From a virus (Duplodnaviria; Caudoviricetes), in the IMG/VR virus record IMGVR_UViG_3300025601_000007: DNA of 64,000 bases. One strand, written 5' to 3'. The notes below the pieces were generated by a model. It made no database searches. It had not been told where the DNA came from and worked only from the letters and a program-made list of their open reading frames with translations. The stretch's first letter is position 1. Each line of letters begins with the position of its first letter. The position numbers and the translations under genes are program-made. Shown here one piece after another: positions 42,615 through 60,048 of this stretch.

Positions 42615-42630
42615 TGTAACTTAATTTTAT

Positions 42631-42920
42631 ATGATTTAGCGTAAAACTCACTCATCGCTTTTTAGCGTGGGTGAGATGTAAGCGTTTTTTTTATATATTT
42701 ACAAATAAGTTCTTTTTCGTTGTTTGCATAAAATCATAAGCGAAACAAAATATTAAGCTGTGGGTTGGGGACCAACTTCGCAGGATAAACAAAAAGGCGG
42801 TGAGGCGTTGCCATTGGGCAAGTCTACGAAACGCTGTAAATTCTGAATATGTATCTGCTCTTTGCATTTATATTTTTTTTAGAAGCCCTTCCATCAGCTT
42901 GCTGTGGATGGGTAGTTCAC
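42631..42920 (+). mobile_element. Non-autonomous IS200/IS605-family element (divergent copy, 290 bp)
   Basis: Follows TTTAT; left-end hairpin GCGTAAAACTCACTCATC..GTGGGTGAGATG; tnpB-tail remnant GAGGCGTTGCC..AGTCTACGA; right end GGTAGTTCAC. Confidence 0.78.
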
Positions 42921-42943
42921 AGAATATAATCAGTTACTTCAAT

Positions 42944-42983
42944 AAAACAAAAAAGAGACTTAAATTAGTCTCTTTTTTGTTTT
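42944..42983. terminator. Intrinsic terminator
   Basis: AAAACAAAAAAGAGACT-TAAATT-AGTCTCTTTTTTGTTTT. Confidence 0.8.
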
Positions 42984-42998
42984 ATATTTTATTGGTGT

Positions 42999-43255
42999 TT
43001 AGAAGCCTGGCTGTTCAAAGTTGATTCCAGCAATCTCATCAGGCGCTGCTCCTGCGTTTGGTGCTAAATCTGTGAGATTTGACTCTAAAGCAGCATTAAC
43101 GCCACGTGTGAATCCTTTTCCAATGTCTATCAGAACAGATGGATTTGAACGCTCTTCCCACTCAAGCGTGTCAAGGTATTCTTTAAAAGCGCTCTCGCCT
43201 TCTTGGCTGGCATGTAAAGCCTGTTCACCTGCTCCAAGTGTGCCTTCACTTAATC
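42999..43255 (-). other. Start-less coding frame continuing 43250..43939 after a -1 shift at A9
   Basis: RLSEGTLGAGEQALHASQEGESAFKEYLDTLEWEERSNPSVLIDIGKGFTRGVNAALESNLTDLAPNAGAAPDEIAGINFEQPGF*; its stop sits just before the terminator. Confidence 0.6.
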
Positions 43256-43939
43256 TTTTTTTTTAGACTCCATTAGAGTCGCAACTTTCTCAGCCTGGAT
43301 TTTAGTCCATTCTAGCAATTCATTTCTATTCTTGAAGGTAAACCCTTCTTTCGGCATCTCAATTGCTTTAGCTATAGCTTCTGGAACTGCTTCATTTTGT
43401 GCATCTTCGTGAACATCTGCTCCGTTCATCCCGACATTTGTTGCCTGGTCTGAGCTTAGATTTCCTTTTGCACCGACAAAAGTTTTTGTCCCTTCGTCAA
43501 CTTCCTTGTCCATAGAGTTCATTTTTGCTTCGCCATCTTTATCAAATGGTTCACCTTTCTCTTTGGTAGGGTTTGATTTTTTTGAATCAAAGTTTGCAGT
43601 TTTTTGACCAGCTGTGGCCGATTGGTCACTTGAAAGGTCTCCACCTGCGTTAACTTTAACCGCAGTAGACGCCGCTCCGTCACAGCCAGCCTCTTTGTCC
43701 ATTGTATTCATGGCAACGTTCATAGGGTCTTTGGCAGCAACTTTCGCTGATTTAGTTTCCTCGTTTCCACCAATGTTCTTAACTTTGGCTTCTGGATTTG
43801 CGCTTGCTCCACCAACCATCTTGTTCATAACAACATCAGTTGGATTGCCTGCTGCTTTTATCTCGTCAGCCTCGATTAGCCTTTGAGCTTGTCCGTGGAT
43901 GTATCTTACGAGGTCTTCTTTTCTGATTTGCTTAGACAT
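43250..43939 (-). CDS. Low-complexity virion-type protein with internal repeats
   Basis: MNKM/MNTMDKE/MNSMDKE and G.LSSDQ repeats; CTATTTAT at 43971-78. Confidence 0.72.
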   Translation of the reverse strand: MSKQIRKEDLVRYIHGQAQRLIEADEIKAAGNPTDVVMNKMVGGASANPEAKVKNIGGNEETKSAKVAAKDPMNVAMNTMDKEAGCDGAASTAVKVNAGGDLSSDQSATAGQKTANFDSKKSNPTKEKGEPFDKDGEAKMNSMDKEVDEGTKTFVGAKGNLSSDQATNVGMNGADVHEDAQNEAVPEAIAKAIEMPKEGFTFKNRNELLEWTKIQAEKVATLMESKKKD

Positions 43940-44044
43940 GTGTATTCGTTTTGTTTGCTAGAATTCCCTCATAAATAGCAAGGAAAACAACAAATTCAAT
44001 TTTTACGAAACTTTTATAGACAACCTCCGTATATTAGAAGTAAA

Positions 44045-44121
44045 TAGCGTGATGTGGAAGTAAGACTCTCATTAAGTCTTTGGGGGATACCCCTGCTGCT
44101 GTTCGATTCAGCACACGCTAC
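44045..44121 (+). tRNA. Atypical tRNA-like RNA: anticodon CAT, no D stem, long variable arm, no encoded CCA
   Basis: Acceptor TAGCGTG/CACGCTA; anticodon stem AAGACT/AGTCTT with loop CTCATTA; variable stem GGGG(G)/CCCC; T stem TGCTG/CAGCA with loop TTCGATT. Confidence 0.65.
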
Positions 44122-44147
44122 TAAAAAAAATATAACTCAAAAAGCAT

Positions 44148-45869
44148 ATGAATATAGTTAAGACTATTCTACTTGGAGGTATTGTTTACTTCTGTGTTTA
44201 TTTTGGACTTCCAACTTGGAAAATGGACAACCCCAACATGTGGCTTACATTTTTGTTTTGGGGAATTTGTGTCACAGTATTAGGGATAAATTGGTCTAAA
44301 AGCAAAGCCACACCTTTCACTTGGGTAGGGGTAATAATTAGTGTTTTAACAATAACTGTGCTTCTTTTACAGTCGATAGGGGGGAATCGATGGTTAAATG
44401 ACGAAAAATATCGAGATTTAATTGGGGTAGTGGAATATAAAGTATATTCAGATGAGGTGGCTCCAATTGACCAGTCAAAGATATTTGTTATACCGCCATC
44501 AACTGCTTTATTACTCGGCCAGAAGTCTCTTGTAGACCCAGAAGATACCACTGAAAACGTAGTTGGGTCTCAAGTTGAGATTGGTGAGTACGTTCTCCAG
44601 GAGGTTAATCAAGGGATTTACTATGTCGCTCCAACGCTTCACACAAGCTATTGGAAATGGCGTAGCAACAAACAAGGCACACCAGGATATGTAATGGTGA
44701 ATGCTGTTGATGAGAAAGATATTCAATACATAGACACGTACAACATTGTGTATCAACCAAAGGCTTGTTTTGACCAGAACTTGGAAAGGCACCTGTGGTT
44801 GAGCGGGTATTCGACAACTTATTTGACAGATTATCAGTTTGAAATTGACGACATGGGAAAGCCATATTGGGTTGTGACTATGTATGACAGAACTATTGGT
44901 ATGTCAGGGAAAGAGGTTTCTGGATGTTTAGTTGTAGACGCTGAAACTGGGGAAATAGAACAGTACACCACTAAAGAGGCTCCTGATTGGGTGGACAGGG
45001 TCCAGCCATCTCATATAATCCATGAACAACTGGTCGACTGGGGTTCTTTAGCAATGGGTTACATTAATTGGGATGATAAAAACAGAAAGAAAATCACAAA
45101 TGACATGAGTGTTGTTTACGGAAACGATGGAGATTGCTACTATTATACAGGTGTAACTTCTGTTGGGAAAGACGATGCTACTATTGGATTTATTGAAGTT
45201 AACACAAAAACTAAGAAAACCATTTTTTACAAAAAAGCAGGAGCCACCGAAGACGCTGCAATGAAGAGTGCTAATGATATGTATGCTGACCTTGGCTATA
45301 AAGCCACTTTTCCTAAAACATATAATGTTAATGGGGAGCCAACATACATAATGGGCATGCAAGCTTCCTCAGGCATGATTAAGGCCGTCTGTATGGTTAA
45401 CGTTGAAAACTATAATACTGTCGGAAATGGGGAGACTATAGGTTCAGCACTGCGCGATTACCGAGGCAAGTTAACTAGAAATATGCATGATGCTATATTA
45501 TCTGAGGACATTGAAAAAGATTTAGCTTTGCATGTCATACAAAGAATTAGGCAGGATGCTGAAAGTGGGATGTTCTATTTACTTTTTGAAGGTCAGGATA
45601 AAATCACCACTGTTGATGGAGTAAGTTTCCAAGAGGTTTTTTTAAGCGAAAGACAGGATTCAGTAGTTGTAGGAGTTATGCCTTCTGAATCGGAAACAGA
45701 ATCGGCTGTCTATTTTGACAACATTAACTTAGACATTCAAGTGTCCGACAAACAAGAAGAGTTAGAGTTTAATTTAAAAAATCCAGTAATTTACGATAAT
45801 GGTAATGAGACGGCCTTGCCTACGGGAAATAAAAAAGATTCTCGAAAAAAAGGTATACTTCCGAATTAA
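44148..45869 (+). CDS. Membrane-anchored protein with large soluble domain
   Basis: Three N-terminal TM segments followed by a ~480 aa beta-rich domain. Confidence 0.8.
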   Translation: MNIVKTILLGGIVYFCVYFGLPTWKMDNPNMWLTFLFWGICVTVLGINWSKSKATPFTWVGVIISVLTITVLLLQSIGGNRWLNDEKYRDLIGVVEYKVYSDEVAPIDQSKIFVIPPSTALLLGQKSLVDPEDTTENVVGSQVEIGEYVLQEVNQGIYYVAPTLHTSYWKWRSNKQGTPGYVMVNAVDEKDIQYIDTYNIVYQPKACFDQNLERHLWLSGYSTTYLTDYQFEIDDMGKPYWVVTMYDRTIGMSGKEVSGCLVVDAETGEIEQYTTKEAPDWVDRVQPSHIIHEQLVDWGSLAMGYINWDDKNRKKITNDMSVVYGNDGDCYYYTGVTSVGKDDATIGFIEVNTKTKKTIFYKKAGATEDAAMKSANDMYADLGYKATFPKTYNVNGEPTYIMGMQASSGMIKAVCMVNVENYNTVGNGETIGSALRDYRGKLTRNMHDAILSEDIEKDLALHVIQRIRQDAESGMFYLLFEGQDKITTVDGVSFQEVFLSERQDSVVVGVMPSESETESAVYFDNINLDIQVSDKQEELEFNLKNPVIYDNGNETALPTGNKKDSRKKGILPN

Positions 45870-45902
45870 CAGCCATATTTATAACAAATTCAATACACCA
45901 AT

Positions 45903-46469
45903 ATGCGACGAGGCAAAAAAGCCCAACCTAAGAGACAGGATAAATTCACACACAGAGTCAACCATCAGATTAAAGTACTAGAGGTACGGTTAACAGGTGA
46001 TAGTGACAAGTTTGTATCAGGAGAAGTGTATAAGACCGAAGAAGCTAAAAACATAGCGGCAAGTCTTGAGCTTGATTTAATAGAGATTTCCCCAAACGCA
46101 AAGCCTCCTGTATGTAGAATTATAGAGCTTGGTAAATTTAAATATGAAATCAAAAAGAAGGCGCGAGAGCAAGAAGCTAAGCAGCGAATAGCAAAAGTTG
46201 AAACAAAAGAGATTCGTTTAGGGCCAACAACTGGTCCAGGTGACTTAGACTTTAAACGCGCTCATGCAATCAGCTTCCTGGAGGATGGAAACATTGTCCG
46301 TCTAAGCATGTTTTTCCGTGGCAGAATGATTGCAAATAAAGAAATTGGCCAAAAGCTAATGCTAGAGTTTGCGTCCTCCCTTGAAAGCTATGGGATACCG
46401 TTAGCGTTACCTAAGTTCGAAGGAAAAAGACTAAAAGTGGATATTAAGCCCAAGCCTAAACAAAAATAA
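45903..46469 (+). CDS. infC: Translation initiation factor IF-3
   Basis: VNHQI..EVRL, LDLIEISPNAKPPVCRI.ELGKFKYE, KEIRL..GDLDFK..AISFLEDG..V.....FRGR. Confidence 0.92.
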   Translation: MRRGKKAQPKRQDKFTHRVNHQIKVLEVRLTGDSDKFVSGEVYKTEEAKNIAASLELDLIEISPNAKPPVCRIIELGKFKYEIKKKAREQEAKQRIAKVETKEIRLGPTTGPGDLDFKRAHAISFLEDGNIVRLSMFFRGRMIANKEIGQKLMLEFASSLESYGIPLALPKFEGKRLKVDIKPKPKQK

Positions 46470-46479
46470 GAAACTGCCG

Positions 46480-46671
46480 ATGAACGAGATGAAACTGAGA
46501 CTTGACGAACTCTTGATGGAGATGTACATCCCAAATGAGCGCAAAGACCTTAATTTCATCTCTAATATTCGCTGGCTTCTTGGAAATCTAGGAATATATA
46601 ACTCTGATTCTGAGGGTTATGATGAAGCTTTAGACCTTCTTAGAACGCTTACTAGAAAAATGCGTAGTTAA
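46480..46671 (+). CDS. Small hypothetical protein
   Basis: 63 aa ORF after infC. Confidence 0.55.
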   Translation: MNEMKLRLDELLMEMYIPNERKDLNFISNIRWLLGNLGIYNSDSEGYDEALDLLRTLTRKMRS

Positions 46672-47606
46672 TATTTTCGTTTTTTAGGACTAACTTTACG
46701 TTCTTTTAGAGCTGTAAAATTTCCTTTGGCTGTCTCAATTGTTGTGAGTTCGAAATATTTGTCGTCTTTCTTTAGCAGCTCAACAAGTGTTCCATCTTTT
46801 TTCTTGAATGTTACTCTTTCAAACACATATTTACTGCGTTCAGTCTTGATGTGCTCAGCAAGTACTGATTTTACAGTTTTTGATGCAATTTCTTCAGCAA
46901 TCTCACGAATAATAGCTTCATTCATGTGATACATATAATTCTGGTGCGCTTTATAGTCCTTACGCACCTCTGGAGTAGATTCTGCAACTGGAGAAACTTC
47001 TGAAGCAAACCCTTGTTTATCGCTAGCGAAATCTCTATATGAGAGAGCATTTGATTTAGCTGGTTGTTGTTGAACAGGCGACTGAGTAAGCGGCTGCTCC
47101 ATCTCAGTTTGTTTTTGTTGCAATCTGTTCTGTAATTGATTGGAAACATTCATTGCGTTCCAATTTGGGCCATAATTGTCAAGATTAGCTCCAATTTCTC
47201 CTCTTGGGCTCATTGAAAGCCTTGCACCACCACCGCTACCGTAGTCTGGGTCAAACATTTTATCGATAGCGCTCAACTCTGAGTCATTACTTCTATCCAC
47301 TCCTGATGAAAAATCAGCAACCGAAACTTTTTTGTCTTCGTCTACTGGGGCTCCGTTGTGGGGTTTTACTGGAATAGGATTGAATCCAGATGGTCCTGTT
47401 TTAGACTTTTTTGAAAACATTTCCTGGTACTTTTGACGAAACTGTCCACTAAGGACATCGCCATATTGTCTTCTAACGGCTGGTGAATGTGCGTTCCCAT
47501 TTACATCCCCCTCAGTAAGACCTCCTCCCACAGGTCCTTTGTACCCCAATGTCTGGAGTCTGTTATATCTTTCGTCTTGTAAGGTTTGATGATTCTGCTG
47601 ATTCAT
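46668..47606 (-). CDS. Hypothetical protein
   Basis: 312 aa; Q/G-rich; IIREIAEEIA..VLAE motif. Confidence 0.7.
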   Translation of the reverse strand: MNQQNHQTLQDERYNRLQTLGYKGPVGGGLTEGDVNGNAHSPAVRRQYGDVLSGQFRQKYQEMFSKKSKTGPSGFNPIPVKPHNGAPVDEDKKVSVADFSSGVDRSNDSELSAIDKMFDPDYGSGGGARLSMSPRGEIGANLDNYGPNWNAMNVSNQLQNRLQQKQTEMEQPLTQSPVQQQPAKSNALSYRDFASDKQGFASEVSPVAESTPEVRKDYKAHQNYMYHMNEAIIREIAEEIASKTVKSVLAEHIKTERSKYVFERVTFKKKDGTLVELLKKDDKYFELTTIETAKGNFTALKERKVSPKKRKY

Positions 47607-47995
47607 TATCTAGGTAGTTCTGGGTTGTTTTCGTCATGGAGGCGAATGTTGCAAATTTTGAAATCATGTAGAAAGAAAAAACGGTGATATACTATTTTAT
47701 CTTCCGTAGATTCTTCTTCGTCAATACTCTCTCCCTTGTAAATAGCTTCAAATAGTGAATATTGGACGTCGCTCATTGTTAGACGACAAGTGAGAGAGCT
47801 GGGTCGAGATATTTCTCTAGATTTCCTGAATTTCACTTTTCCAACAAAATCGTTCATCATTATTTTGAACTCAATGTAACTTTCTTGTTCTACTTGTTGG
47901 TAAGTAACGGAGTCTCCATAGAACTCCTCAAACTTATTAGTGCTTCCATCGAACTCAAGGTCGACTAATGCTTCTATTGGTTGTTTTTTTGCCAT
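47606..47995 (-). CDS. Hypothetical protein
   Basis: 129 aa ORF. Confidence 0.6.
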   Translation of the reverse strand: MAKKQPIEALVDLEFDGSTNKFEEFYGDSVTYQQVEQESYIEFKIMMNDFVGKVKFRKSREISRPSSLTCRLTMSDVQYSLFEAIYKGESIDEEESTEDKIVYHRFFFLHDFKICNIRLHDENNPELPR

Positions 47996-48281
47996 AAGTG
48001 TAAATGATTACTGTGTCTAGTGTTTCACTCCACCAAGCGTAGTATGATTTGCTTCTTTTTGAGCCGCCTCTAAATAGCAAAGAGTCTATAAGAGAATTAA
48101 CGCTGAGGTTTTTAAATTTCTTCTTCAAAGATTTTATTGATTTAGCAATTTCTTTGTCGTTATCCACTTTTATCTCAGAAAGTTCTTTTTTCTGCTCTTT
48201 AAAATCTCTTTTAAGCCACGTGACAATTTCAGTTTTAAACTTGTCTTGGTTTATAAGGATTTGCTTAATGGTATGATTCAC
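47955..48281 (-). CDS. Hypothetical protein
   Basis: 108 aa ORF. Confidence 0.55.
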   Translation of the reverse strand: MNHTIKQILINQDKFKTEIVTWLKRDFKEQKKELSEIKVDNDKEIAKSIKSLKKKFKNLSVNSLIDSLLFRGGSKRSKSYYAWWSETLDTVIIYTYGKKTTNRSISRP

Positions 48282-48317
48282 ACTTAATGATAGTTTTTCA
48301 AGGAACTATTTTAAAGC

Positions 48318-49007
48318 TTAAACAGCTGCTGCTCCACCAGCTCCTCCACCTGCAACCGCTCCAGGCGCTTCTCCAGGAGCAGAGCTTAATCCAGGAACCA
48401 TTCCTGGCTGTTCTTGGCCAGGAAGCATATCATCGGCAAAGTCTTCTGGGGCTTCCTCGTTTCCAGTAAGTTTTTGTCTCCATTCTTTTTGCCATTCGTT
48501 GTAGAAATTGTAAATCTCAGGGAACAATTCTTTGTTTTCCTGGGTCAGCTCAACCCCTTCTGTTTCAATCCTTAGCCCATTGGGAATGGAAAACATCCAT
48601 CGCATATTTCCTTCATTTCCAATTTGAATATATCCAGATGCAGTTACAGCAATCCCTTTTGGGTTTTGCGTGAATGACATGCTTTTTCTGTTCTTGCCCT
48701 GCTCATCGAATGTGACAGTTGTGTTTGGATATTTTGAAAGCGTCTCGGCAAACTTTCTTTCAAATTCATTTATTTCACCAGCATCTATCTGTGGAATTGC
48801 TCCCTCAGCTAGGCCATATATTTTGTTGAACCCCGTGTCTTCATAGCCGCCATTAAACAAGATATTTTCAAATTCTCTGTCGTCCATCTTTGGAGGCAAA
48901 TCAGCTTGAGGCTTATTGGCTGCTGCTGCTTTTTCTTGCTTTAGCTTGGATGCTGCTGCTGACCACACCTCTTTTCTGATTAAATCTTTCAAATCTTCTT
49001 TGTTCAT
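48318..49007 (-). CDS. Hypothetical virion-type protein
   Basis: EDLKDLIRKE N-terminus; G/A/P-rich tail. Confidence 0.72.
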   Translation of the reverse strand: MNKEDLKDLIRKEVWSAAASKLKQEKAAAANKPQADLPPKMDDREFENILFNGGYEDTGFNKIYGLAEGAIPQIDAGEINEFERKFAETLSKYPNTTVTFDEQGKNRKSMSFTQNPKGIAVTASGYIQIGNEGNMRWMFSIPNGLRIETEGVELTQENKELFPEIYNFYNEWQKEWRQKLTGNEEAPEDFADDMLPGQEQPGMVPGLSSAPGEAPGAVAGGGAGGAAAV

Positions 49008-49008
49008 A

Positions 49009-49917
49009 TTAAATCTGGTTTATGAAGAACGCGCTCTTCTCCCATAAATACTTATACTGTAGCACAATCGTCTTGCGAATCATGTCCTTAACTTCTTTCT
49101 TGGACATGTATTCACCTTTTTTTGTTTGTGTTTCAAATTCTTTTTTGACAAACTTTCTAAGCTTGGCCTCTGTCCACGCATCAACTGATTCGTTTAAGCC
49201 GACAGTGCTGTAAGAGCCTTTTTCAAATGGTTGTGGGTCAACGTATCCAACTTCTTTGTTTGACTTGTTTTTTTGAGATTTTCCTGTTGAATTAAAAATA
49301 GATTTTGCTGGCTCAAAGGAAAGAACAAGCTCTTTTAAAAAGTCTTCAATTTCTTTTATGTCAGAAGGCATTAAAGGTCCGTTATATTGTTTTGGAACCT
49401 GTTCTATAAGAATATCCAGAGCCATCTTCAAAGCTGGCTCAAATTGATTCGTTCCTTTATCTGGGTACTCTTCAATCCAAGCAAGATGAACTCTGGTAAT
49501 TACACCTTCTTCGTAAAGCTTGTTTGAAAAGTCTTCCTTTTGTTCAGAGTCCCAATCCTCTGTTTCATTCATACTAAACGCATCAAGAGTTTGCGCGTCG
49601 CCCTGATTGTTAATGGCATACATCTTCTTCCCTGGAGTAGACTTTGCTGCGTCAAACTTTTTCTTACTAGCAGTAATAACGCTAATAAAGGTGGAGATTA
49701 AGCTCTGCATCTCTTCCCTCCTGAGGCCAGATGAAAATTTTAGCTTTAAATCAGGGCCTGACTGAGTAAATAATTCTACAGTAGCTTTATACGTTCGTAC
49801 AAACCACGACTTATCAACACTTAAGTCAACACCAACTTCCTTAGCTATATCCGCAGCAGTTTCATCCCTTGTCAGATATTTAAAAAGTATCTCTACTGGA
49901 TATGTTTTATTTTCCAT
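49009..49917 (-). CDS. Hypothetical virion-type protein
   Basis: 302 aa; LNE..AKLRKFVKKEFE motif. Confidence 0.72.
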   Translation of the reverse strand: MENKTYPVEILFKYLTRDETAADIAKEVGVDLSVDKSWFVRTYKATVELFTQSGPDLKLKFSSGLRREEMQSLISTFISVITASKKKFDAAKSTPGKKMYAINNQGDAQTLDAFSMNETEDWDSEQKEDFSNKLYEEGVITRVHLAWIEEYPDKGTNQFEPALKMALDILIEQVPKQYNGPLMPSDIKEIEDFLKELVLSFEPAKSIFNSTGKSQKNKSNKEVGYVDPQPFEKGSYSTVGLNESVDAWTEAKLRKFVKKEFETQTKKGEYMSKKEVKDMIRKTIVLQYKYLWEKSAFFINQI

Positions 49918-50818
49918 ACTTTGTTGCTAATCGATTAAGCATCTCTAGAATTCTGTGGTCTGGATACAAGTCAAGTTTATCTTTTCTAACTGTGGAGTGT
50001 GACCAAATTCCAGGAAGAGTTTGTCGAATAACTTCGCTATCATAGTCAAACCAAGAATAGTCAAACTCGTATTGGATTTCGATATTATATTTCTCAATTA
50101 AATGCTCACAAAGTTTTTCTGTGGCATTGATTTGCCCATCAGTAAATGATTGGTAATATTGAAAACCTCTAAACCCTCTAGGTAGGCTGTAAACTTCATC
50201 TTTAGGTATTACTTTTGTAGAGTAATCTTTTGGCCAAGCGTAGTATTTTCCATCTTTTAACTTTAAGGGCCCATAATTGCAGATTTCAATTCCAAATGAT
50301 GATTTATCTAACCTGCCCTTAGTGCCTTTTATGCCTAAGTGATAGCTCCAGTAGTCTGGATTGAAGCATTCAAACACATCACCGTCGCCATCTATGACAA
50401 ATGGCGTTGCAACTCTAGGCTCATTAGAATCCCAATAATCTATTACGTTTTTCGCACTTGGCCCTCCAGCTGTAAAATGAAGAAAGATTTGAGTTTTTGA
50501 CGTAGTTTGCTTGATGTATTGCCCCGTAGACAGTCTGTGACTTTTATCTACTGGCATTGGATATTCTTGTTTTGAAGCTTCATTAGTCACTGATGGCTTC
50601 CATGTTCTTTTTCTTGATGCATGTGCTTTTAAAGCGTCTGCAGTTGACTGACCAACTACACCGTCATTCATCAATCCAATTTTCTTTTGAAAAGCTTTTA
50701 CTGAACGTTGCGTTTTTGCACCATAATCGCCATCTATAACCAAGTCGTAACCTAGAACCGACAGCATTTTTTGCACTTCTATTACTTTCTGACCTCTATC
50801 TCCTACCTTTAAAATCAT
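49907..50818 (-). CDS. Endolysin: peptidoglycan-binding domain plus N-acetylmuramoyl-L-alanine amidase (Amidase_2)
   Basis: LKVGDRGQKV.EVQ.ML..LGY...DGDYG..T..SVKAFQ..GL..DGVVG; IFLHFTAG, GIEIC, IWSHSTVRKDKLD. Confidence 0.9.
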   Translation of the reverse strand: MILKVGDRGQKVIEVQKMLSVLGYDLVIDGDYGAKTQRSVKAFQKKIGLMNDGVVGQSTADALKAHASRKRTWKPSVTNEASKQEYPMPVDKSHRLSTGQYIKQTTSKTQIFLHFTAGGPSAKNVIDYWDSNEPRVATPFVIDGDGDVFECFNPDYWSYHLGIKGTKGRLDKSSFGIEICNYGPLKLKDGKYYAWPKDYSTKVIPKDEVYSLPRGFRGFQYYQSFTDGQINATEKLCEHLIEKYNIEIQYEFDYSWFDYDSEVIRQTLPGIWSHSTVRKDKLDLYPDHRILEMLNRLATKYGK

Positions 50819-50904
50819 GCCATTAGTGTTGTTGGTTTATAAATAGCTGGGATATTTATGAATGCGTAGATGTAACATTTCTTTATTTCCTGCGTATATT
50901 GTAA

Positions 50905-51357
50905 GTGATGGTAAGGAAAATAGTCATAACACCCAATCGTGATAATGAAGTCCAAATGGATTTCACAAAAACCTTTAAAGCTAAGTCAGGGATTGAGCTT
51001 TACGAGCACATTATAGTCAGAGAGGAAAATGGGGCTCAATGTGTGTACACTATCATGAATGAGTCGTGCTTTGAAATACTTAAAAAAACTTTATTGGAAT
51101 TCCAAGTAAATGTTCAGCAGGATGTTGACTTCACCGAGAACTTTAAAGAGCTATATAGAAGCGGAAGATTATGTGAATTTGTTTATAGCAATGACACACT
51201 GAGTCCCAGTGATTTCATTTCAGACTTTTATTCCAAGCACATTAAATGCGACGAGGTTCTTGAAAAAATTTACATTGGTGGAATTAACTCTCTTGATAAA
51301 TTTGACCGACAAATACTTACAAACTTCAACACTTCTGAAGCAAAAAAGTCAGCTTGA
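50905..51357 (+). CDS. Hypothetical protein
   Basis: 150 aa ORF followed by a terminator. Confidence 0.65.
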   Translation: MMVRKIVITPNRDNEVQMDFTKTFKAKSGIELYEHIIVREENGAQCVYTIMNESCFEILKKTLLEFQVNVQQDVDFTENFKELYRSGRLCEFVYSNDTLSPSDFISDFYSKHIKCDEVLEKIYIGGINSLDKFDRQILTNFNTSEAKKSA

Positions 51358-51369
51358 AGCTGACTTTTT
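51343..51369 (+). terminator. Intrinsic terminator
   Basis: AAAAAGTCAGC-TTGAA-GCTGACTTTTT. Confidence 0.75.
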
Positions 51370-51386
51370 GTTAAATTTGTTTTTAT

Positions 51387-51742
51387 AAGACGGAGCGTAA
51401 AACCCATTCATCGCGCAGCGTGGATGGGATGAAAGCGACCTTATTCAGCAAATATAACAATTGTTTTTGATAAAGACTTGATGTTTTTGGTTTAAACGCA
51501 TATATTTGTTATAACAAACTTCGATAACCAAGAGTTTGTTGTTCTTTGACGTGGTATAAGGTTGCTCTGCAAAATCTTGCAGTTTGCATAAAACCAAAAA
51601 GTAAAACTGAATTAAAAACATTCACGTCTGGTTGTGGGATGCAGTCGGACGATAATCAAAAACGGGATGAGGCGTTGCTATTAGGTGAGTCTACGACCCC
51701 CGAAGCCCAACCCATCGGCTCTGCCGTGGGTGGGTAGTTCAC
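51387..51742 (+). mobile_element. Non-autonomous IS200/IS605-family element (356 bp, copy 1)
   Basis: Follows TTTAT; left-end hairpin; TnpB C-terminal remnant ESTTPEAQPIGSAVGG*; right end GGTAGTTCAC; identical by eye to 59611..59966. Confidence 0.88.
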
Positions 51743-52302
51743 TATACTCCGAAATCGCCTCCCTGGCCACTTCTCGCTCCAGATACAAAATCTTTAAAGC
51801 TAGCCCCACCTTTGGCGGCTTGCCTATTAAATGTGTTAAAGTCCATTGGTTGAGCTAATTGTTGCAGGTCTTTGTAAAAAATTGCAACATCAGTAATGCC
51901 ATGTCTTTTAGCGATTTCAGCAGAATCTTGACGAAGCGTTTGTAGCAAGCCTTTCGAAATCTCAACATAATCTGCTGTGCGAGCCTTATAGGCTTGAGTT
52001 AATTGAGCGAGTTCTTGAGATTTTATTTGCTTGTATTCTTTTTTTGCTTTTTCATACTTGCCCATTCCGAAAATTTCTTCGATATCTTGCTCTTGAGTTA
52101 TACCAAGCGTGGCAGCAGTGTGTTCGTCAAGGTTTTGTCCTTTATAAACATCTCGCATTTCCTGCTCTACCTTTGCAAGCTTGTTTTCAAGAAGCTTTAC
52201 TTTGCTGTCAGCAGCACTTTCTTGAATCTTATTAAATTTAAGCTTCATCGCTTCCTCTTTAATAAGAGCATTGAGTTTTTCTTTAGAAATTTTAAGTTTC
52301 AT
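51742..52302 (-). CDS. Hypothetical virion-type protein
   Basis: MKLKISKEKLNALIKEE; LDE/IEE motifs; CTATTTAT at 52337-44. Confidence 0.72.
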   Translation of the reverse strand: MKLKISKEKLNALIKEEAMKLKFNKIQESAADSKVKLLENKLAKVEQEMRDVYKGQNLDEHTAATLGITQEQDIEEIFGMGKYEKAKKEYKQIKSQELAQLTQAYKARTADYVEISKGLLQTLRQDSAEIAKRHGITDVAIFYKDLQQLAQPMDFNTFNRQAAKGGASFKDFVSGARSGQGGDFGV

Positions 52303-52358
52303 CGTTGTGTTCCGTTTGGTTGTGTAAGCTGTGCAAATAAATAGAAGTAAAAACCCAA

Positions 52359-55300
52359 TTAATCCGCCATTCTATTCATTAGTCTTGAAATTATGCTCTC
52401 ATCTCCTCGTGAGACATCTCGCTTAAAATCTTTGTTGTCCAAAACTTTACTCACAACCTGGTTTTTCTCTTTAAGTAACTCATAGATGTCGATGTCAATT
52501 GAGTCTTCACAAAGAAAAGTCATAATCTGGACGTTATCGTGTGTCGTCGTTGCTCTGTGAATCCTGTCTTCGGCCTGACCCATGTCTGCAGGTGTCCATG
52601 CTTGCCCAATAAAAATTAGTTTATTAGCGGATGTCAACGTGATACCAACACCTGCAGAGCCAAACGTCCCGCCGAACACATTTATGTTTTTCTTTTCTTG
52701 AAAACTGGTGACAGACTCATGCTTTTGGATAGCATTCATTTGCCCTGTGTGCAAAACACATCTATCACCCCACAGTTCTTTTATAGCATTTCCCGTGTCG
52801 ATGTAATCAAAGAATATTACAACTTTGTCTCCAGACTCAATGATGTCGTCAATAAAATCCCTCGCCTTTTCAAGTTTGAATGTCTCCGTGCATTTTTTTA
52901 GTAAGTGAACTTTCGCAAGGAAGCTCATTTCTTTTTCATCTTCTTTTCCTTCCTCGTTAATGAATTTGATTACCTCTTTCTCGGCTTTGTTGTATTCTCG
53001 CTTGGTTTTTATGTCCATTTCCAACACAACTTCGCTATATGTTTTAGGTGGCAGTTGGGACAAAACATCTTTTTTGAGTCGCCTTAGATAAAACGGAGAT
53101 ATTCTTTGGTATAGCTCTTCTAAATATGATGCCCCATCGTACTTCCACCCAAAACTATCTTCGAACCCAGCTCCATAACGCACGCCGAAGTCATGGAAAG
53201 AGTTCCACATGTCCTTATCGAGCAAATTGAGAGGCATAAACAGTTCTATCGGCCTAGATTTGATGGCGGTACCAGAAAGGAGCACTTTCTTGCTTACAGA
53301 CTCTCTAAATGCCATGTTTATTATTTTTGTCCAATCTGTAGTTCTTTCTTTTATCCTATGAAACTCATCAATGATAATCAAATCATAATCGTCAGGGTCC
53401 AGAACTTCCCCATCTTTATCAATGATGTATTGGAGACCTTTTATTCTGCTTTTGAAAGAGTTAGTGTTTGCACACTGAGGGCAGTCGTCTGTAATCTTTT
53501 TCTTGAGGCTGGTGATTTTGCAGTCGCAGTTTCTATTTCCTCCGCTTGAGAAAAGAGTTCCTGTGCACCTGTGGTTGTATTCCAGTTTGATAAACGTTTG
53601 GATTGATTCAAAGTTTATTATATGGAATAGAGACTCCTCTTTAGTGTTGTTTGTCTTCCCGCTTCTTTTGGTTGGGTTGTATTTATATACAAACGATTTC
53701 TCGTGAGAGAACTTCTCAATCTCCGACTTCCAGTTGAGCTTTAGCGATGCAGGGCATATAACAAGAGTTTTTAAGTTATGCTTGATTGCGTATGCGAATG
53801 CTGGAGCTGTATTGTGAGTTACTATGTAATCGTTCACAACAAATGTGCTATCATCAGAATCAACACTTATACATTGTTGAGGGAGCACTCCAATATACTC
53901 AATACTCTCTATATATCTAGACGTGTGATTGGTTGCTACTATTTTGTGTTCTTTTATTTTATCGTCAAGATGAAATGGTGCCCAGTTGAGTTTCACATTT
54001 ACTCGGTACTCAACCCCTTTTTGTTCATGTGTCCTGTCATAAGAAAACACTTTTGCTATGCCTCCCAATGACTGTGTTAATTCTTTTACATCTTCCGCCA
54101 GTTGTTTTGATACTGTGTGATAGTGAGTTCTACTGTTAGAACAACTCCCATCAGTGTCCATAAGCCCTTTTAATAGCTCTGTTCGCTGCTCAGTGGAGCC
54201 GTTTCTGTACTCTTGTGGAATAAATTTGTAATGGGATTTCACATTTAATTTCAAGCGTCTTATCTCGTCGGTGTATCTGTTTTTTTGTCCTAAAGTATCT
54301 GATATTGAGTATCTACTGCAAGAGTGTTGAGTGGACTCAGATTTTTTTATTTTAGCCATCTTCATCCCAGGTAATAAATTCGACTCAATTAAACTGGCTG
54401 TTGATTCTTGGAAATCAGGTATAGACATCGTAGGGGTGGGCGATGAAATAGCTCCATCTCCGATTAAAGAGCCTAAAATAAAAGGATGAATCACATATTT
54501 CTTCTCAGGGAAATTCGCTGGCTGGATAGTCGGGATTTCCCATTTCAAAACAGGCTTTCTACCGCTGTCAATTCTTTTTTTATTTGTCTTATACGATAGT
54601 CCAGATTTTATTAACTCAGCAATAGACTTAACTGTCCACCCTATGCCTTTTTGTCTTCTGTTAGCATCTCTTACTGTCCATAAATGCTCTTCGCAACATT
54701 TTACTTTTGAGCCGTCGTTAAAGGTGACTTCGTATGCATCAAGAAGCCCTTGAGGATATACTCCAGTGACTTTGTGAAATTCGCCATCAGAACCTAACAC
54801 ACTTGAGTCGAGTGATATATCACCCATTCGTATCCATCCTTTATCGGTGCAAATAGGGGTTTCTAAAAACAAACTCTTACCAACACCAGGTTCATCGCCA
54901 AGCATAATTACGCCTTCGTTGATTTCCATGAATTTAACTGCCTGCTTTTGGTAGTCATACGGCTCTATCTTCATAAAACTGTAATCTTCATCGTCAACTT
55001 GTATGCTGTCTGCCTTTGCTTTTAAGGCTTCTCGGATTCTGTTTTGGCGTTCCAAATAAAGCTGTCGAAGTTGCCCCATTTCTGCTTTAGTGAAATTGTC
55101 TAAAGCAAATGGATAACTATTGTCCAGGAGGAATGAGATGACATTTCCCATCTGGACCTCTCTAACTTGAGTGACCCACTGAGCTTTTACGGTTCCATCT
55201 AATTGCAGCACTTCCTCTTTGAACAGCTTCTTGTGCTCGCGAGGGAATGATTTGATATAAGATTGAAGTCGTTTGTCGAATTCGAAAGTCAGGTTGTAAT

Positions 55301-55376
55301 TAGTCCTGAGCTTTTTTATATTCACCGTCGGCCTGTAGCTGGCTTTCTTTTTTGGCTTTCCTTTTTCTTTGCTCAT
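52359..55376 (-). CDS. SNF2/HARP-like helicase with intein
   Basis: PYDYQ, GDEPGVGK|T, IINFE, IIDEFH, LSGTA, RRLK.DVL, AGVGITLT, QAEDRIHR. Confidence 0.92.
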   Translation of the reverse strand: MSKEKGKPKKKASYRPTVNIKKLRTNYNLTFEFDKRLQSYIKSFPREHKKLFKEEVLQLDGTVKAQWVTQVREVQMGNVISFLLDNSYPFALDNFTKAEMGQLRQLYLERQNRIREALKAKADSIQVDDEDYSFMKIEPYDYQKQAVKFMEINEGVIMLGDEPGVGKSLFLETPICTDKGWIRMGDISLDSSVLGSDGEFHKVTGVYPQGLLDAYEVTFNDGSKVKCCEEHLWTVRDANRRQKGIGWTVKSIAELIKSGLSYKTNKKRIDSGRKPVLKWEIPTIQPANFPEKKYVIHPFILGSLIGDGAISSPTPTMSIPDFQESTASLIESNLLPGMKMAKIKKSESTQHSCSRYSISDTLGQKNRYTDEIRRLKLNVKSHYKFIPQEYRNGSTEQRTELLKGLMDTDGSCSNSRTHYHTVSKQLAEDVKELTQSLGGIAKVFSYDRTHEQKGVEYRVNVKLNWAPFHLDDKIKEHKIVATNHTSRYIESIEYIGVLPQQCISVDSDDSTFVVNDYIVTHNTAPAFAYAIKHNLKTLVICPASLKLNWKSEIEKFSHEKSFVYKYNPTKRSGKTNNTKEESLFHIINFESIQTFIKLEYNHRCTGTLFSSGGNRNCDCKITSLKKKITDDCPQCANTNSFKSRIKGLQYIIDKDGEVLDPDDYDLIIIDEFHRIKERTTDWTKIINMAFRESVSKKVLLSGTAIKSRPIELFMPLNLLDKDMWNSFHDFGVRYGAGFEDSFGWKYDGASYLEELYQRISPFYLRRLKKDVLSQLPPKTYSEVVLEMDIKTKREYNKAEKEVIKFINEEGKEDEKEMSFLAKVHLLKKCTETFKLEKARDFIDDIIESGDKVVIFFDYIDTGNAIKELWGDRCVLHTGQMNAIQKHESVTSFQEKKNINVFGGTFGSAGVGITLTSANKLIFIGQAWTPADMGQAEDRIHRATTTHDNVQIMTFLCEDSIDIDIYELLKEKNQVVSKVLDNKDFKRDVSRGDESIISRLMNRMAD
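53811..54875 (-). mobile_element. Intein (355 aa) with LAGLIDADG homing endonuclease, inserted in Walker A
   Basis: GK|SLFLETPI...TFVVNDYIVTHN|T; LGSLIGDG and LKGLMDTDG motifs. Confidence 0.92.
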
Positions 55377-56149: not shown

Positions 56150-56184
56150 AGAGAATAATGAACAATTATTCTCGAAAAATCAAA

Positions 56185-56781
56185 TTACTTCTTAGAGCGA
56201 AATACTATTTTTGGGATATAAAGGGTAGCTCTTTTTTTAAAACTTTTCTTTTTTAACTTATCCATGTCGATTTTGAATGCCTTGTTAGCATTTTTCAGCA
56301 CCTCTCGCTCCTTAGCTAAATCTTTGAACATGTTTTCCAACGATGTAATTTGAGAAGGAGTTTCGAATTCTTTATTTGGTCTTGGCTTCTGGATACAAGC
56401 AAAATCCTGTGTACTTTTTTTGTCTCTGAGTTTGTGGAAAATGTAGTTCTTCCCAGCTCTCTCTGCTTTCCAAATAGCAAACTTATTCTTCAGGTTTCTC
56501 ACCCATTTGTATTTGTTTTTACAAGGGTATATAGTAACAAACGCACCTGTGCCTTCTCCGTAGATACGGATGTAGTCGTTTTCTTTGATGCGTTTGGATG
56601 TTCCCCCGTGGTATTGATTACGAATATCCTGAGTGGATTTCATCCTCTCGTTGTAATTCGGCAGTTCCGATTTAACTCTAGCAGCCAAGCTGTTTAGTTC
56701 ATCTTGCTCTTGCTCTAAGTTAATTCCAACTTCGCTGAATAACTTATGGATATTTTTTAATTCTGATTCTTTTTCTTTCAA
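56185..56781 (-). CDS. Hypothetical basic protein
   Basis: TTG start 16 nt after CTATTTAT (56798-805). Confidence 0.65.
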   Translation of the reverse strand: MKEKESELKNIHKLFSEVGINLEQEQDELNSLAARVKSELPNYNERMKSTQDIRNQYHGGTSKRIKENDYIRIYGEGTGAFVTIYPCKNKYKWVRNLKNKFAIWKAERAGKNYIFHKLRDKKSTQDFACIQKPRPNKEFETPSQITSLENMFKDLAKEREVLKNANKAFKIDMDKLKKKSFKKRATLYIPKIVFRSKK

Positions 56782-56827
56782 AATGCTTATTTTTGGTATA
56801 AATAGACAGTGATTCCTTGAATGGGAA

Positions 56828-57793
56828 TTATTTTAACTTCCCGTGTTCTTTCAAAAGTGTCTTGTCTTGGCCTGGGAATCCGCTACATAACGGGTGTTTA
56901 CCGCCTTTGTAGGAACAAAAACGACAAGAGTTTTTGTCATCTATCAAATAGTTCCCGCCAAGGTCAACCGTTGGGTTTCCAGCGAAATCTAAAACGAATT
57001 TAGCTTTTTGAAAGTCTTGTTTGATGTGGATTTTGTTGAGTGACTCCGACATTGCCTCTATTGCCTGGCGAATTTCTCCTAGCGATGAAGTCATTGGAAC
57101 ATCAACAATTTCTCCGAAGCCCATGTCTGGCTTCTTCTTGTTTTTCAGTCTGTTCAAAACAACATACTTGGTATCTATCTGAGTCAAATCCACGTTGTTC
57201 TTTCTGGCCCAGAAATACTTATACAATTTCATTTGCATAAGGAAGGTTTTGTTTTTGTTCTTCCAGTACATATTCCACGGCTCAGAGGACGTCTTCCAAT
57301 CGATTATCACAATTCGACCAGTCTTTCTGTTTTTGACCACAAAATCAATAAACCCTTTGAAGTAAAAAATTCCATAAATGTGTTCGTAAAGAGGCTCCTC
57401 CACCGAGACTATCTCGTAATCTCGCATAAATGCTTCCACATCAATGGTCCGAAGCATGTTCTCGCCTTGGTCGGTGAACGCATCAAGGTCAGCGAACTCA
57501 GGGGTGTCTTTCATGTTCTCAATCATGTCCTTCCTGAAAGTGAGCTTGAAATGCTCTACTCGCTTGTCGGTGCTATACTCGTTCTCAAACGTGCGTTCAA
57601 TCGATTCGTGAATGGCGTTTCCGAAGTACAAGTGAATTGATGGAGGCTGTTGGTCCAGACCTAAGTGTTTCTCAATCAAGTGCTTGTGTCCGCATTCTCG
57701 GAATAATGAGAATTCTGAAAAAGAAATGTGCTTGTATCCCTTTTGTTTACCCTCGGCCATTACGCGAAACATATCTTCTTTGCCTTTGCTCAT
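56828..57793 (-). CDS. RecB/Cas4-like PD-(D/E)XK exonuclease
   Basis: SFSEF...ECGHK, FGNAIHE, KGFIDFV, IIDWKT, QMKLY, CRFCSY....C. Confidence 0.85.
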   Translation of the reverse strand: MSKGKEDMFRVMAEGKQKGYKHISFSEFSLFRECGHKHLIEKHLGLDQQPPSIHLYFGNAIHESIERTFENEYSTDKRVEHFKLTFRKDMIENMKDTPEFADLDAFTDQGENMLRTIDVEAFMRDYEIVSVEEPLYEHIYGIFYFKGFIDFVVKNRKTGRIVIIDWKTSSEPWNMYWKNKNKTFLMQMKLYKYFWARKNNVDLTQIDTKYVVLNRLKNKKKPDMGFGEIVDVPMTSSLGEIRQAIEAMSESLNKIHIKQDFQKAKFVLDFAGNPTVDLGGNYLIDDKNSCRFCSYKGGKHPLCSGFPGQDKTLLKEHGKLK

Positions 57794-57862
57794 AATACTG
57801 CTGTGTTGTGTCCTTAGCGAATATAATCAATTTTTAGATTATAATCTAGGCTATTTAGGTAT

Positions 57863-58477
57863 ATGGGACACGTATCCTCAATTTATCTTCATAAACTAAA
57901 CAGACTTGCTGGAATTGTTTCAGAGGCACTTAACACTGCCACTGCACCTGACCCTTTTGCGAGGTCCAACGAGCGTGTTCCTTTTAATGTCGACCTGATG
58001 CAGCAAGCAATCGAACAAGGTCTTGTGGTTGGTCTTCTGTTTCAATCCAACAACACCAAGTACAAGATGCCTGTAGCCAAGTACCGCAACATCATGCCTG
58101 TGGCTATGGGGTATGATAAAGACGGTAGATTAGTTTTTCGTGGGGTCCACGTTAAAGGTCAGAGTGAAAAGAAGGCTCGACAGACTGGCGTTAGAAGCGC
58201 AGAGGCATCGAACGAATGGAGGCTGTTTTTGGCATCAAATGTAAAAAGCATGTTCTTTACTGGGGGTTTCTTTTCCCAGGTGCCAATTGGAGGGTTTAAA
58301 TCAAATGACAGTGACATTACGCGTCAGATAGTATCGTTTGATGCGGGGCGAGCAAAAGCTTACCAAGACGAATATAACAAGATGTCGCAACCGCAGTCCG
58401 ACTACAGTCCTGAGTTGAACGAGAAGTCTAGAGTTATAAAGAGTTTGTTTAAGAAAGATTATCGAAGGAAGTGGTAA
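57863..58477 (+). CDS. WYL-like domain protein
   Basis: AIEQG..V...YRNIMPVAMG...GRLVFRG...WRLFLASNV. Confidence 0.6.
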   Translation: MGHVSSIYLHKLNRLAGIVSEALNTATAPDPFARSNERVPFNVDLMQQAIEQGLVVGLLFQSNNTKYKMPVAKYRNIMPVAMGYDKDGRLVFRGVHVKGQSEKKARQTGVRSAEASNEWRLFLASNVKSMFFTGGFFSQVPIGGFKSNDSDITRQIVSFDAGRAKAYQDEYNKMSQPQSDYSPELNEKSRVIKSLFKKDYRRKW

Positions 58478-58580
58478 TTAAAGAGCATTATTAGCGTTTG
58501 GTCTGTATCGAGTAAAATGGTATCGGTTTTGCTATGTACCACTTCAAACCTTGTGTTTGTGTGATGATGATATCATTTGG

Positions 58581-58829
58581 TTACTTCTGAATTTCGTCTT
58601 TCAGTTGTTCAAGTCTTTCAGTTGTCACTATTATTTTTCTTGGCGAGTTGTTAATTGCTCTTTCAAGTGATTGAAATAGTTCTTTTTTGCTTTTAAACAA
58701 GTGTTCTATTGCTTCATAAGGTGTTAATCCCCTAATCATAGACTCAAAGATACTTCTAAATTCTGCATCAAATTGAAACTCTTCAAAGAACTCTTCTGTA
58801 AACTGTGATTTTAATTCAAATTGGTTCAT
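58581..58829 (-). CDS. Hypothetical protein (second AT-rich block)
   Basis: 82 aa ORF. Confidence 0.55.
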   Translation of the reverse strand: MNQFELKSQFTEEFFEEFQFDAEFRSIFESMIRGLTPYEAIEHLFKSKKELFQSLERAINNSPRKIIVTTERLEQLKDEIQK

Positions 58830-58889
58830 AATAAACGCTTTATGGTACAGGTTGAAAATAAAGACCTACTAGGTCTTATTGGTTATTAA

Positions 58890-59135
58890 TTAAGAAGCAT
58901 CTATCTTTTTTATAATAGTAAGTAATTCGTCTTTGTAATGCTGCTCATTCTCATAGATTTCTTCGTGATTAATAGTTCCTTGTGCCCACATTTCTTTGCA
59001 CAATTTTAACCCAAGTAAAACACCTTCTATTCTTGATATTTCAATTATTTCTTCAACTGATTTAGGATAAACAACATCTAATCCCCAAGTGTCTTGATGC
59101 TTTGCTTTTTCGTAGTACTCTTTTGCTTTTGACAT
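58890..59135 (-). CDS. Hypothetical protein (second AT-rich block)
   Basis: 81 aa ORF. Confidence 0.55.
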   Translation of the reverse strand: MSKAKEYYEKAKHQDTWGLDVVYPKSVEEIIEISRIEGVLLGLKLCKEMWAQGTINHEEIYENEQHYKDELLTIIKKIDAS

Positions 59136-59180
59136 AATAAATTTACATAGTGAAGTATATACATAGCTAACCCAGCCTGT

Positions 59181-59537
59181 TTATTCTTCGGTGATGGATA
59201 TATCACCTTTCTCGCTTATTGTGTACCCATATTCAGTAGTTGTATCATCAAATAACTTGTCAACATCTATCTCTGGGTCATGATGAACCATTTCCTCTTC
59301 ATTGTCAGTTATGAACTTTGTCTGAAACACAACAACAAGTTTATTCATTACTTCCGAAATACTATTTTCACCGTAACGAGTTAATCCGTGTATGATACCA
59401 TTTTTTACTTTGGTTAGAATTACATTTTCACCTTTCTTCAACCAAAACTCTCCGTCTCTTTCCTCTACCTTAATATCTGTTTTCTTTTCAACGTCTTCTA
59501 ATGGAAAGCCTTTTTGAAACATAATGTCTAAACTCAT
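59181..59537 (-). CDS. Hypothetical protein (second AT-rich block)
   Basis: 118 aa ORF. Confidence 0.6.
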   Translation of the reverse strand: MSLDIMFQKGFPLEDVEKKTDIKVEERDGEFWLKKGENVILTKVKNGIIHGLTRYGENSISEVMNKLVVVFQTKFITDNEEEMVHHDPEIDVDKLFDDTTTEYGYTISEKGDISITEE

Positions 59538-59610
59538 AATTCTGTATTTTTAACAGCACCAAAGCATTTGAAACCAACTGATTCTATCTACCTCGCAATG
59601 CATTTTTTAT

Positions 59611-59966
59611 AAGACGGAGCGTAAAACCCATTCATCGCGCAGCGTGGATGGGATGAAAGCGACCTTATTCAGCAAATATAACAATTGTTTTTGATAAAGA
59701 CTTGATGTTTTTGGTTTAAACGCATATATTTGTTATAACAAACTTCGATAACCAAGAGTTTGTTGTTCTTTGACGTGGTATAAGGTTGCTCTGCAAAATC
59801 TTGCAGTTTGCATAAAACCAAAAAGTAAAACTGAATTAAAAACATTCACGTCTGGTTGTGGGATGCAGTCGGACGATAATCAAAAACGGGATGAGGCGTT
59901 GCTATTAGGTGAGTCTACGACCCCCGAAGCCCAACCCATCGGCTCTGCCGTGGGTGGGTAGTTCAC
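59611..59966 (+). mobile_element. Non-autonomous IS200/IS605-family element (356 bp, copy 2)
   Basis: Identical by eye to 51387..51742; follows TTTAT; ends GGTAGTTCAC. Confidence 0.88.
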
Positions 59967-60048
59967 ACTATAATATTTTCCAAAAATTCAATTCAGTATT
60001 ATCCAAGATTTGCCCGTGCCGCAAAAAAAACAGCGCATAGCATCATAG

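Follow-up and report, generated by a model that had tools for sequence, protein, structure and literature searches.

What are the three short, protein-free repeats that interrupt the genome of a T4-like jumbo phage of Bacteroidota, and could they supply guide RNA to a nuclease encoded elsewhere? We addressed this question in a stretch of 64,000 nucleotides (the window) that spans bases 21947-85946 of the 109,119-bp IMG/VR virus record IMGVR_UViG_3300025601_000007, which CheckV rates as 31% complete, the phage itself measuring at least 208 kb. Two of the repeats, starting at positions 51387 and 59611, are identical 356-bp units; the third, starting at 42631, is a divergent copy of 290 bp. We interpret all three as derivatives of tnpB-only IS200/IS605 elements that are non-autonomous, resemble the palindrome-associated transposable elements (PATEs) and carry an omegaRNA used in trans. 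Taken as a whole this reading is probable; the identity of the elements is close to certain, and the odds that their RNA functions at present are about even. A preliminary description, made from the letters alone, had already seen them as TnpB-derived mini-elements that keep both ends and encode no protein, and the hairpins, scaffold and tnpB homology presented here support that view.

A repeat search of positions 40000-64000 returned a single long direct repeat (51380-51679 against 59604-59903, 100% identical), and direct reading of the letters stretches the identity to 51380-51742 and 59604-59966; it begins ahead of the 356-bp units because the flank TTTTTAT is common to both copies. All three elements lie on the plus strand (Table 1). 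The divergent copy matches the 356-bp unit at 79% over about 47 nt of its left end and at 70-83% over the last ~155 nt, where the match is broken by a 46-nt insertion (~42836-42881). Each copy is preceded by TTTAT and terminates in GGGTAGTTCAC, and the flanks contain no direct repeat indicative of a target duplication, so that on reading the three copies the borders and coordinates first proposed for them are confirmed. In a single-stranded DNA fold, an imperfect hairpin with a single bulged T appears at either end; the left one starts 16 nt inside the element and the right one stops 7 nt short of the terminus. Terminal inverted repeats are lacking. The arms of the left-end hairpin read CTCAC/GTGAG in the divergent copy and CCCAT/ATGGG in the 356-bp unit, those of the right-end hairpin CAGC/GCTG and CGGC/GCCG, respectively; in either hairpin both sides have changed and the pairing is intact. 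Subterminal hairpins, insertion 3' of a fixed pentanucleotide and the absence of inverted repeats and of target duplication are hallmarks of IS200/IS605 ends (PMC10055086). The same left-end layout (TTTAT, A..GGAGCGTAAAAC, hairpin, GATGTAAGCGAC) is common to about 20 independent viral and bacterial elements, a few of which have TTCAT in place of TTTAT; the pentanucleotide that had been taken for the insertion motif is thus the motif of the whole family. These data show that both ends required by a Y1 TnpA transposase are retained in the three copies, the right one finishing in TTCAC.

The interior of the 356-bp unit reveals its parentage. It consists of a 54-nt left end, a 150-nt filler without similarity to tnpB or to related elements, and the last 152 nt of a tnpB element; the left-end match, the tnpB 3' homology and the unrelated filler therefore make it tripartite. 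The sole open reading frame inside the element is a 63-codon TTG frame, the leftover TnpB tail rather than a protein gene, and no TnpA or TnpB domain was found inside the mini-elements. When a 73-aa tail was used as query, 670 longer proteins were returned, and nearly all of the matches listed are TnpBs of 390-430 aa with the domains PF12323, PF01385 and PF07282, which are also the domains of the TnpB relatives overall (395-426 aa). The conserved-core pattern of the elements matches at six loci in two uncultured Chitinophagaceae metagenome-assembled genomes (MAGs). In locus L008 the TnpB C-terminus (zinc ribbon, then ...RDVNAAKNIL..., the RuvC-III motif) runs directly into this core, and in metagenome contigs TnpB frames of 395-416 aa stop 16 nt short of the right end. 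In L034, L035, L037 and L058 tnpB is preceded by a divergently oriented Y1 tnpA. Two further loci, L233 and L234, are tnpB-only elements in phage-like contigs: the 356-bp unit shares 91% identity with L233 at the left end and has exactly the right-end hairpin of L234. The strict core pattern found no match in IMG/VR, nor did BLAST of the 356-bp unit against the INPHARED phages.

The retained tnpB 3' end contains a conserved predicted RNA structure. Seventeen right-end regions were aligned (four mini-elements, L010, which has no tnpB frame upstream, and 12 tnpB-linked sequences), and their RNAalifold consensus comprises 32 pairs, nine of them with compensatory changes. Across the window and the whole 109-kb record, the covariance model built from this alignment (R1, 140 positions) matches the three copies and nothing else, each over all 140 positions (141.5, 141.5 and 114.2 bits). 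When R1 was run on 80 IMG/VR loci retrieved by TnpB homology, about 45 of them gave a hit at the 3' end of the tnpB match; R1 also matches the tnpB 3' end in L233 and L234 (133 bits). In an alignment of 64 sequences, itself fitted to R1, 96% of the cells are standard pairs, against 33-45% when the partners are slid by 1-3 columns, and both sides have changed in 25 of the 32 pairs; none of 500 shuffles reached any of these measures. A fold of positions 51602-51742 as a single sequence recovers stems P1, P2/P3 and the right-end hairpin (z = -2.55). Rfam contains nothing that reaches a gathering score, only chance-level matches at E up to 10. Because of its location at the tnpB 3' end, its covariation and the full-length R1 matches, we conclude from these comparisons that the predicted R1 structure represents the scaffold of the omegaRNA that belongs to this TnpB lineage, and that none of it is missing from the mini-elements.

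Would such a scaffold persist if no RNA were made or used? The copies could be inert relics, recent deletion derivatives in which the omegaRNA part lies beside the right end that TnpA needs and has not yet decayed. The size classes of the family bear on this. A scan of IMG/VR with the left-end motif gave 75 loci, and pairing of left ends with R1 matches or right-end motifs allowed a small sample to be sized. Three groups emerged: full-length elements (about 20, 0.85-1.9 kb); protein-free elements that all retain the full scaffold (about nine distinct ones, 208-327 bp); and tiny forms (seven, 51-87 bp) with a single hairpin linking the left-end leader to the right-end tail. Elements of 87-208 bp with a partial scaffold were not seen in this small sample. 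Within the second group, a class of 208-216 bp (L236, L242, L246, L261, L267, L287 and a 216-bp copy, L006, in a Chitinophagaceae MAG) has a shared interior and is present in at least three copies in one 93-kb viral contig. This interior includes TTTG-N19/20-TATATTT(G/T) or TAAGTTTG and ends a few nt before stem P1; TTTG and either of these boxes, with a spacer of 19-20 nt, form what we take to be the Bacteroidota -33/-7 promoter consensus. That the family is able to shed the whole scaffold is shown by the solo-hairpin forms of 51-53 bp, and 7 nt of P2 are gone in L267, both of which would suit inert relics. On the other side, at least five independent deletion derivatives (356, 290, ~215, 297 and 327 bp) each keep the complete scaffold of 140 positions, about 80 nt longer than the right-end hairpin alone. 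Moreover, among the protein-less elements of the 215-bp class, which have their interior in common, P2 (CGGG/CCCG versus CAAG/CUUG) and P3 vary by double changes that preserve the pairs, and a canonical Bacteroidota promoter motif stands directly before P1 in this class, including the bacterial copy L006. Finally, standalone mobilized omegaRNAs without effector or transposase work in trans with compatible effectors (Altae-Tran et al. 2021, as summarized in PMC10691335).

The smallest members of the family form a subject of their own. The micro-elements L239, L248, L253, L279, L307 and L257 (51-53 bp) and L245 (87 bp) consist of TTTAT, the left-end leader, one hairpin and the GGGTAGTTCAC tail. 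A joint of 42662 to 51725, found in salt-lake contigs of runs X17 and X20, corresponds to a 51-nt solo-hairpin form at a depth above that of the phage. The hairpins of the two ends are similar, and recombination between them is the probable origin of such solo-hairpin elements.

The 356-bp unit appears equipped to transcribe its scaffold. The box TATATTTG is located at 51501-51508, 234-241 nt before the right end, in agreement with the ~240 nt first reported, and it belongs to a Bacteroidota-type motif, cTTG-N20-TATATTTG, with the scaffold following about 100 nt downstream. In the whole window this motif is found just five times on the plus strand, and two of the five are in the 356-bp copies. 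We therefore favor, on the basis of these motifs, the view that the 356-bp unit and the 215-bp class may each constitute a self-contained omegaRNA transcription unit. Reading of the three sites confirmed that the guides quoted in the preliminary description are the true right flanks. A second TAM-flanked target of these would-be guides (TAM, transposon-adjacent motif, here TTTAT; up to four mismatches) was not found in the 109-kb record, as expected if the empty site is the only target of each guide. At 17037-17052, in a cassette region and without the TTTAT motif, 15 of 16 positions agree with the would-be guide of the 59611 copy (TCTATAATATTTTCCA); this match is probably a recurrent intergenic motif of the phage and not a target.

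Two phage promoter motifs were considered at the insertion sites and set aside. The preliminary description had tied the TAM to the tail of a CTATTTAT promoter; this connection did not survive, since the motif is absent from all three sites and is not enriched. The T4-type TATAAATA is likewise not enriched and is absent from the insertion sites. The minus strand of the 109-kb record has 27 occurrences of TATAAAAA and the plus strand six. All three insertion sites read T|ATAAAA on the minus strand, so that the insertion motif may coincide in part with a promoter-like box of that strand.

The distribution of the elements speaks for their mobility. The 356-bp unit recurs, at 99-100% identity and between unrelated flanks, in four further metagenome contigs (L044, L052, L066 and L120), and the divergent type occurs at 96% identity at a second site, in L080, which beyond the element has only a few short stretches (35-144 nt) in common with another part of the phage; at least six sites are thereby known for the 356-bp unit and two for the divergent type. 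In Logan contigs from four salt-lake DNA runs, the element has a summed depth 3-28 times as high as its flanks, and many different loose ends begin exactly at the element borders. Together these data show that the 356-bp elements were mobile among phage-like contigs in the past. The gene content of L044, L052 and L120 (diversity-generating retroelement, GlnRS, HNH, SprT) is phage-like and not decisive for host versus phage. In L044 (2352-5570) the unit lies beside a set resembling a diversity-generating retroelement, with a reverse transcriptase, bAvd and a Lcl_C-type target protein.

Related phages provide an empty site for one of the copies. They have the matching gene order around the position of the 51387 copy, with a neighboring 186-aa protein that is 67-68% identical and just 26 nt between the two convergent genes, and their sequence continues unbroken over the insertion point (...TTTATTTCT then TATACTCCGAAATC...); the 51387 copy is therefore an insertion. 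The minus-strand gene 51742-52302 now terminates in TAG (51742-51744), the G being supplied by the last base of the element, as against TAA in the related phages without the insertion, and so the element landed within the stop codon and a stop was retained. Read-through from this copy would be antisense to the gene, a geometry that the preliminary description had stated correctly. For the 59611 copy no empty site was recovered: relatives share only the coding part of a 140-aa gene, and the intergenic region is not conserved. None was found for the 42631 copy either, whose insertion is present in 24 of 24 contigs with an identical neighboring protein. The search for empty-site alleles suggested at the outset thus succeeded at 51387, in related phages, and failed at the two other sites and within the population. 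Scans of IMG/VR with single proteins, using three neighboring proteins, retrieved no relatives.

Several observations weigh against the view that the copies are mobile omegaRNA carriers serving a TnpB in trans. Domain searches of the 109-kb record, about a third of the phage, found neither tnpA nor tnpB; the preliminary description had proposed looking for these genes elsewhere, and cognate TnpBs were found only in other contigs, namely phage-like ones and Chitinophagaceae MAGs. The promoters are called from matching motifs only. In the divergent copy the promoter motif is degenerate (TATATTTA) and not canonical, and the 46 nt inserted between P2 and its right-end hairpin may impair the scaffold; the promoter first ascribed to all three copies can thus be upheld, as a motif, for the 356-bp unit and not for the divergent copy, whose omegaRNA region covers all positions of R1 but is interrupted. 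The pair counts come from an alignment fitted to R1, and part of the conservation of the scaffold (not its covariation) could be protein-driven, because the scaffold is also coding in the full-length relatives. The empty site in related phages has TTTCT, not TTTAT, before the junction. Lastly, the insertions are present in all the contigs read that encode identical neighboring proteins (23, 22 and 24), and the contigs of the four runs contain no precise excision joint over 42300-52400. Within the population of this phage all three insertions are thus fixed, and the evidence bears on past transposition, not on current mobility at these sites. The lack of tnpA and tnpB, the fixation without excision polymorphism and the state of the divergent copy are also what inert relics would leave behind; set against the retention and covariation of the scaffold across the family, they leave that explanation unlikely. 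It is highly improbable that the phage has co-opted the copies as sources of antisense RNA against the 51742-52302 gene, as promoter or terminator modules or as decoys for a TnpB-like nuclease of the host: the antisense read-through of the 51387 copy, the position of the 42631 copy 16 nt upstream of a start codon, the fixation of the insertions in many assemblies and a precedent in the Antarctic archaeal virus HRTV-DL1, where the 3' end of a PATE is the most highly expressed region (PMC10544981), would suit such a role, but the three sites have unrelated contexts, the 356-bp unit recurs at unrelated sites in other contigs, as for a selfish element, and the guides lack a second TAM-flanked match in the 109 kb.

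In the copies an internal deletion has removed all of tnpB but its end, leaving the left end, the right end and the ~140-nt scaffold. If they are indeed PATE-like elements with an omegaRNA used in trans, the published mechanism of the family (PMC10055086; PMC10691335) suggests how they would operate. A TnpA from the host or from another element in the cell would move the copies as single-stranded DNA and insert them after TTTAT without target duplication. The 356-bp unit would transcribe the scaffold from its own promoter-like motif, and the RNA would run on into the right flank, which would serve as a guide of 16-20 nt. A compatible TnpB made elsewhere would then load this RNA and cut TTTAT-flanked copies of the site that lack the element, whereupon recombination with an occupied copy would restore or spread the insertion. 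In a phage, cutting and restoring would act during replication or mixed infection.

The copies are surrounded by phage-like genes, including an endolysin, a fused SbcD-SbcC nuclease and an SNF2 helicase. The 51387 copy lies at convergent gene ends, the 59611 copy in an intergenic spacer, and the 42631 copy upstream of the start codon of a PcfJ-like gene. The SNF2-family helicase (52359-55376, minus strand, 1005 aa) contains a LAGLIDADG/Hom_end segment at residues ~386-459 that is most likely an intein; in related phages the helicase is intein-free and 622-650 aa long, and in L122 it is called as pieces of 372 and 219 aa. At 60468-63944 (minus strand) an SbcD-like part (Metallophos) and an SbcC-like part (Walker B) are fused in one protein of 1158 aa, as also in the relatives L229 and L230. 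The 46-nt insertion of the divergent copy (42836-42881) contains a 12-nt exact complement (AATTCTGAATAT) to the right flank of the element of the same type in L080, and its minus-strand reading is similar to that flank (ATATAAAT...ATTCAGAATT); capture of a phage promoter or leader fragment is a possible origin of the insertion.

Table 1. Positions of the mini-elements and of their parts and flanks in the window.
Feature	Position	Strand	Basis or remark
TTTAT insertion motif (TAM), divergent copy	42626..42630	+	family-wide motif
Divergent 290-bp mini-element	42631..42920	+	96% identical copy, with another flank, in L080
Left-end hairpin, one bulged T, divergent copy	42647..42675	+	DNA fold, z -3.98
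Putative omegaRNA scaffold and right end, divergent copy	42734..42920	+	R1, 114.2 bits, positions 1-140 of 140
Would-be guide, divergent copy	42921..42940	+	right flank
Terminator, 17-bp perfect hairpin, after the guide 42921..42940	~42944-42984		
TTTAT insertion motif (TAM)	51382..51386	+	
356-bp mini-element	51387..51742	+	repeat search, reading
Left-end hairpin, one bulged T, 356-bp unit	51403..51428	+	DNA fold
Bacteroidota-type promoter motif cTTG-N20-TATATTTG	51477..51508	+	motif match only
Putative omegaRNA scaffold (P1, P2, P3) and right-end hairpin	51602..51742	+	R1, 141.5 bits, full length
Right-end hairpin, 356-bp unit	51705-51735	+	DNA fold
Would-be guide, 51387 copy	51743..51762	+	right flank, antisense to the 3' end of 51742-52302 (-)
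TTTAT insertion motif (TAM)	59606..59610	+	
Second, identical 356-bp mini-element	59611..59966	+	between two minus-strand genes
Putative omegaRNA scaffold and right end, second 356-bp copy	59826..59966	+	R1, 141.5 bits
Would-be guide, 59611 copy	59967..59986	+	right flank

Comparison with known systems places the copies as a new example of a kind of element already described, and not as a new kind of system, an assignment that is well supported. PATEs often encode omegaRNAs on which TnpB acts in trans (Meers et al. 2023, PMC10055086), and the closest parallel is provided by the PATE-like elements of Geobacillus stearothermophilus (PMC10055086), which are likewise protein-free, keep their ends, have a TAM equal to the insertion motif and show no target duplication, and which depend on TnpB and TnpA in trans, as the present copies would. 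Those elements, however, are in a bacterial chromosome, whereas the copies described here are in a lytic-type jumbo phage of Bacteroidota, the 356-bp unit has a foreign filler of 150 nt with a Bacteroidota-type promoter motif, and no TnpB or TnpA accompanies them in the 109-kb record. The standalone omegaRNAs of PMC10691335 are also mobilized loci without effector or transposase; they were shown to work in trans with compatible effectors, whereas the present elements would rely on an effector encoded by the host or by the remainder of the phage. HRTV-DL1, like the phage studied here, has a PATE within the genome of an Antarctic salt-lake virus (PMC10544981); this element, of 489 bp, is shared with the host of the virus, and its 3' end is very strongly transcribed in infection. 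In contrast to the present case of three copies in a Bacteroidota setting, that host is archaeal, the sequence is unrelated and a link to omegaRNA or TnpB was not worked out. The nearest relatives by sequence are the IS1341-type tnpB-only elements L233 and L234, with which the copies have in common the left end (91%), the right-end hairpin, the TTTAT target and the omegaRNA family; these relatives possess an intact tnpB of 400-426 aa, whereas the window copies keep only its last ~150 nt.

What is new here is the occurrence of three copies of two types in one jumbo phage, together with a defined model (R1), a TAM and cognate TnpBs. Because the concept has already been published (PMC10691335, PMC10055086, PMC10544981), the value of the locus is that of an example and of test material, namely R1, the TnpBs of L233 and L234, the TAM and the guides. 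The recurrence of such elements suggests that mini-elements combining promoter and scaffold are common in phage contigs. If a TnpB of the host or of a phage uses their RNAs, each would amount to a gene-drive-like module that costs ~200-350 bp and no protein, and this would bear on phage-phage competition and on the separation of guide RNAs from their nucleases on the way toward CRISPR arrays. A more far-reaching idea, which we put forward tentatively and consider doubtful, is that large phages widely carry, as an accessory, omegaRNA mini-transposons that have a promoter but no protein gene, and that these act as nuclease-free homing cassettes that borrow the TnpB of the host or of another phage in mixed infection. 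In that event, co-infecting relatives without the element would be cut, and the cassettes, together with the phage alleles linked to them, would be driven through the phage population.

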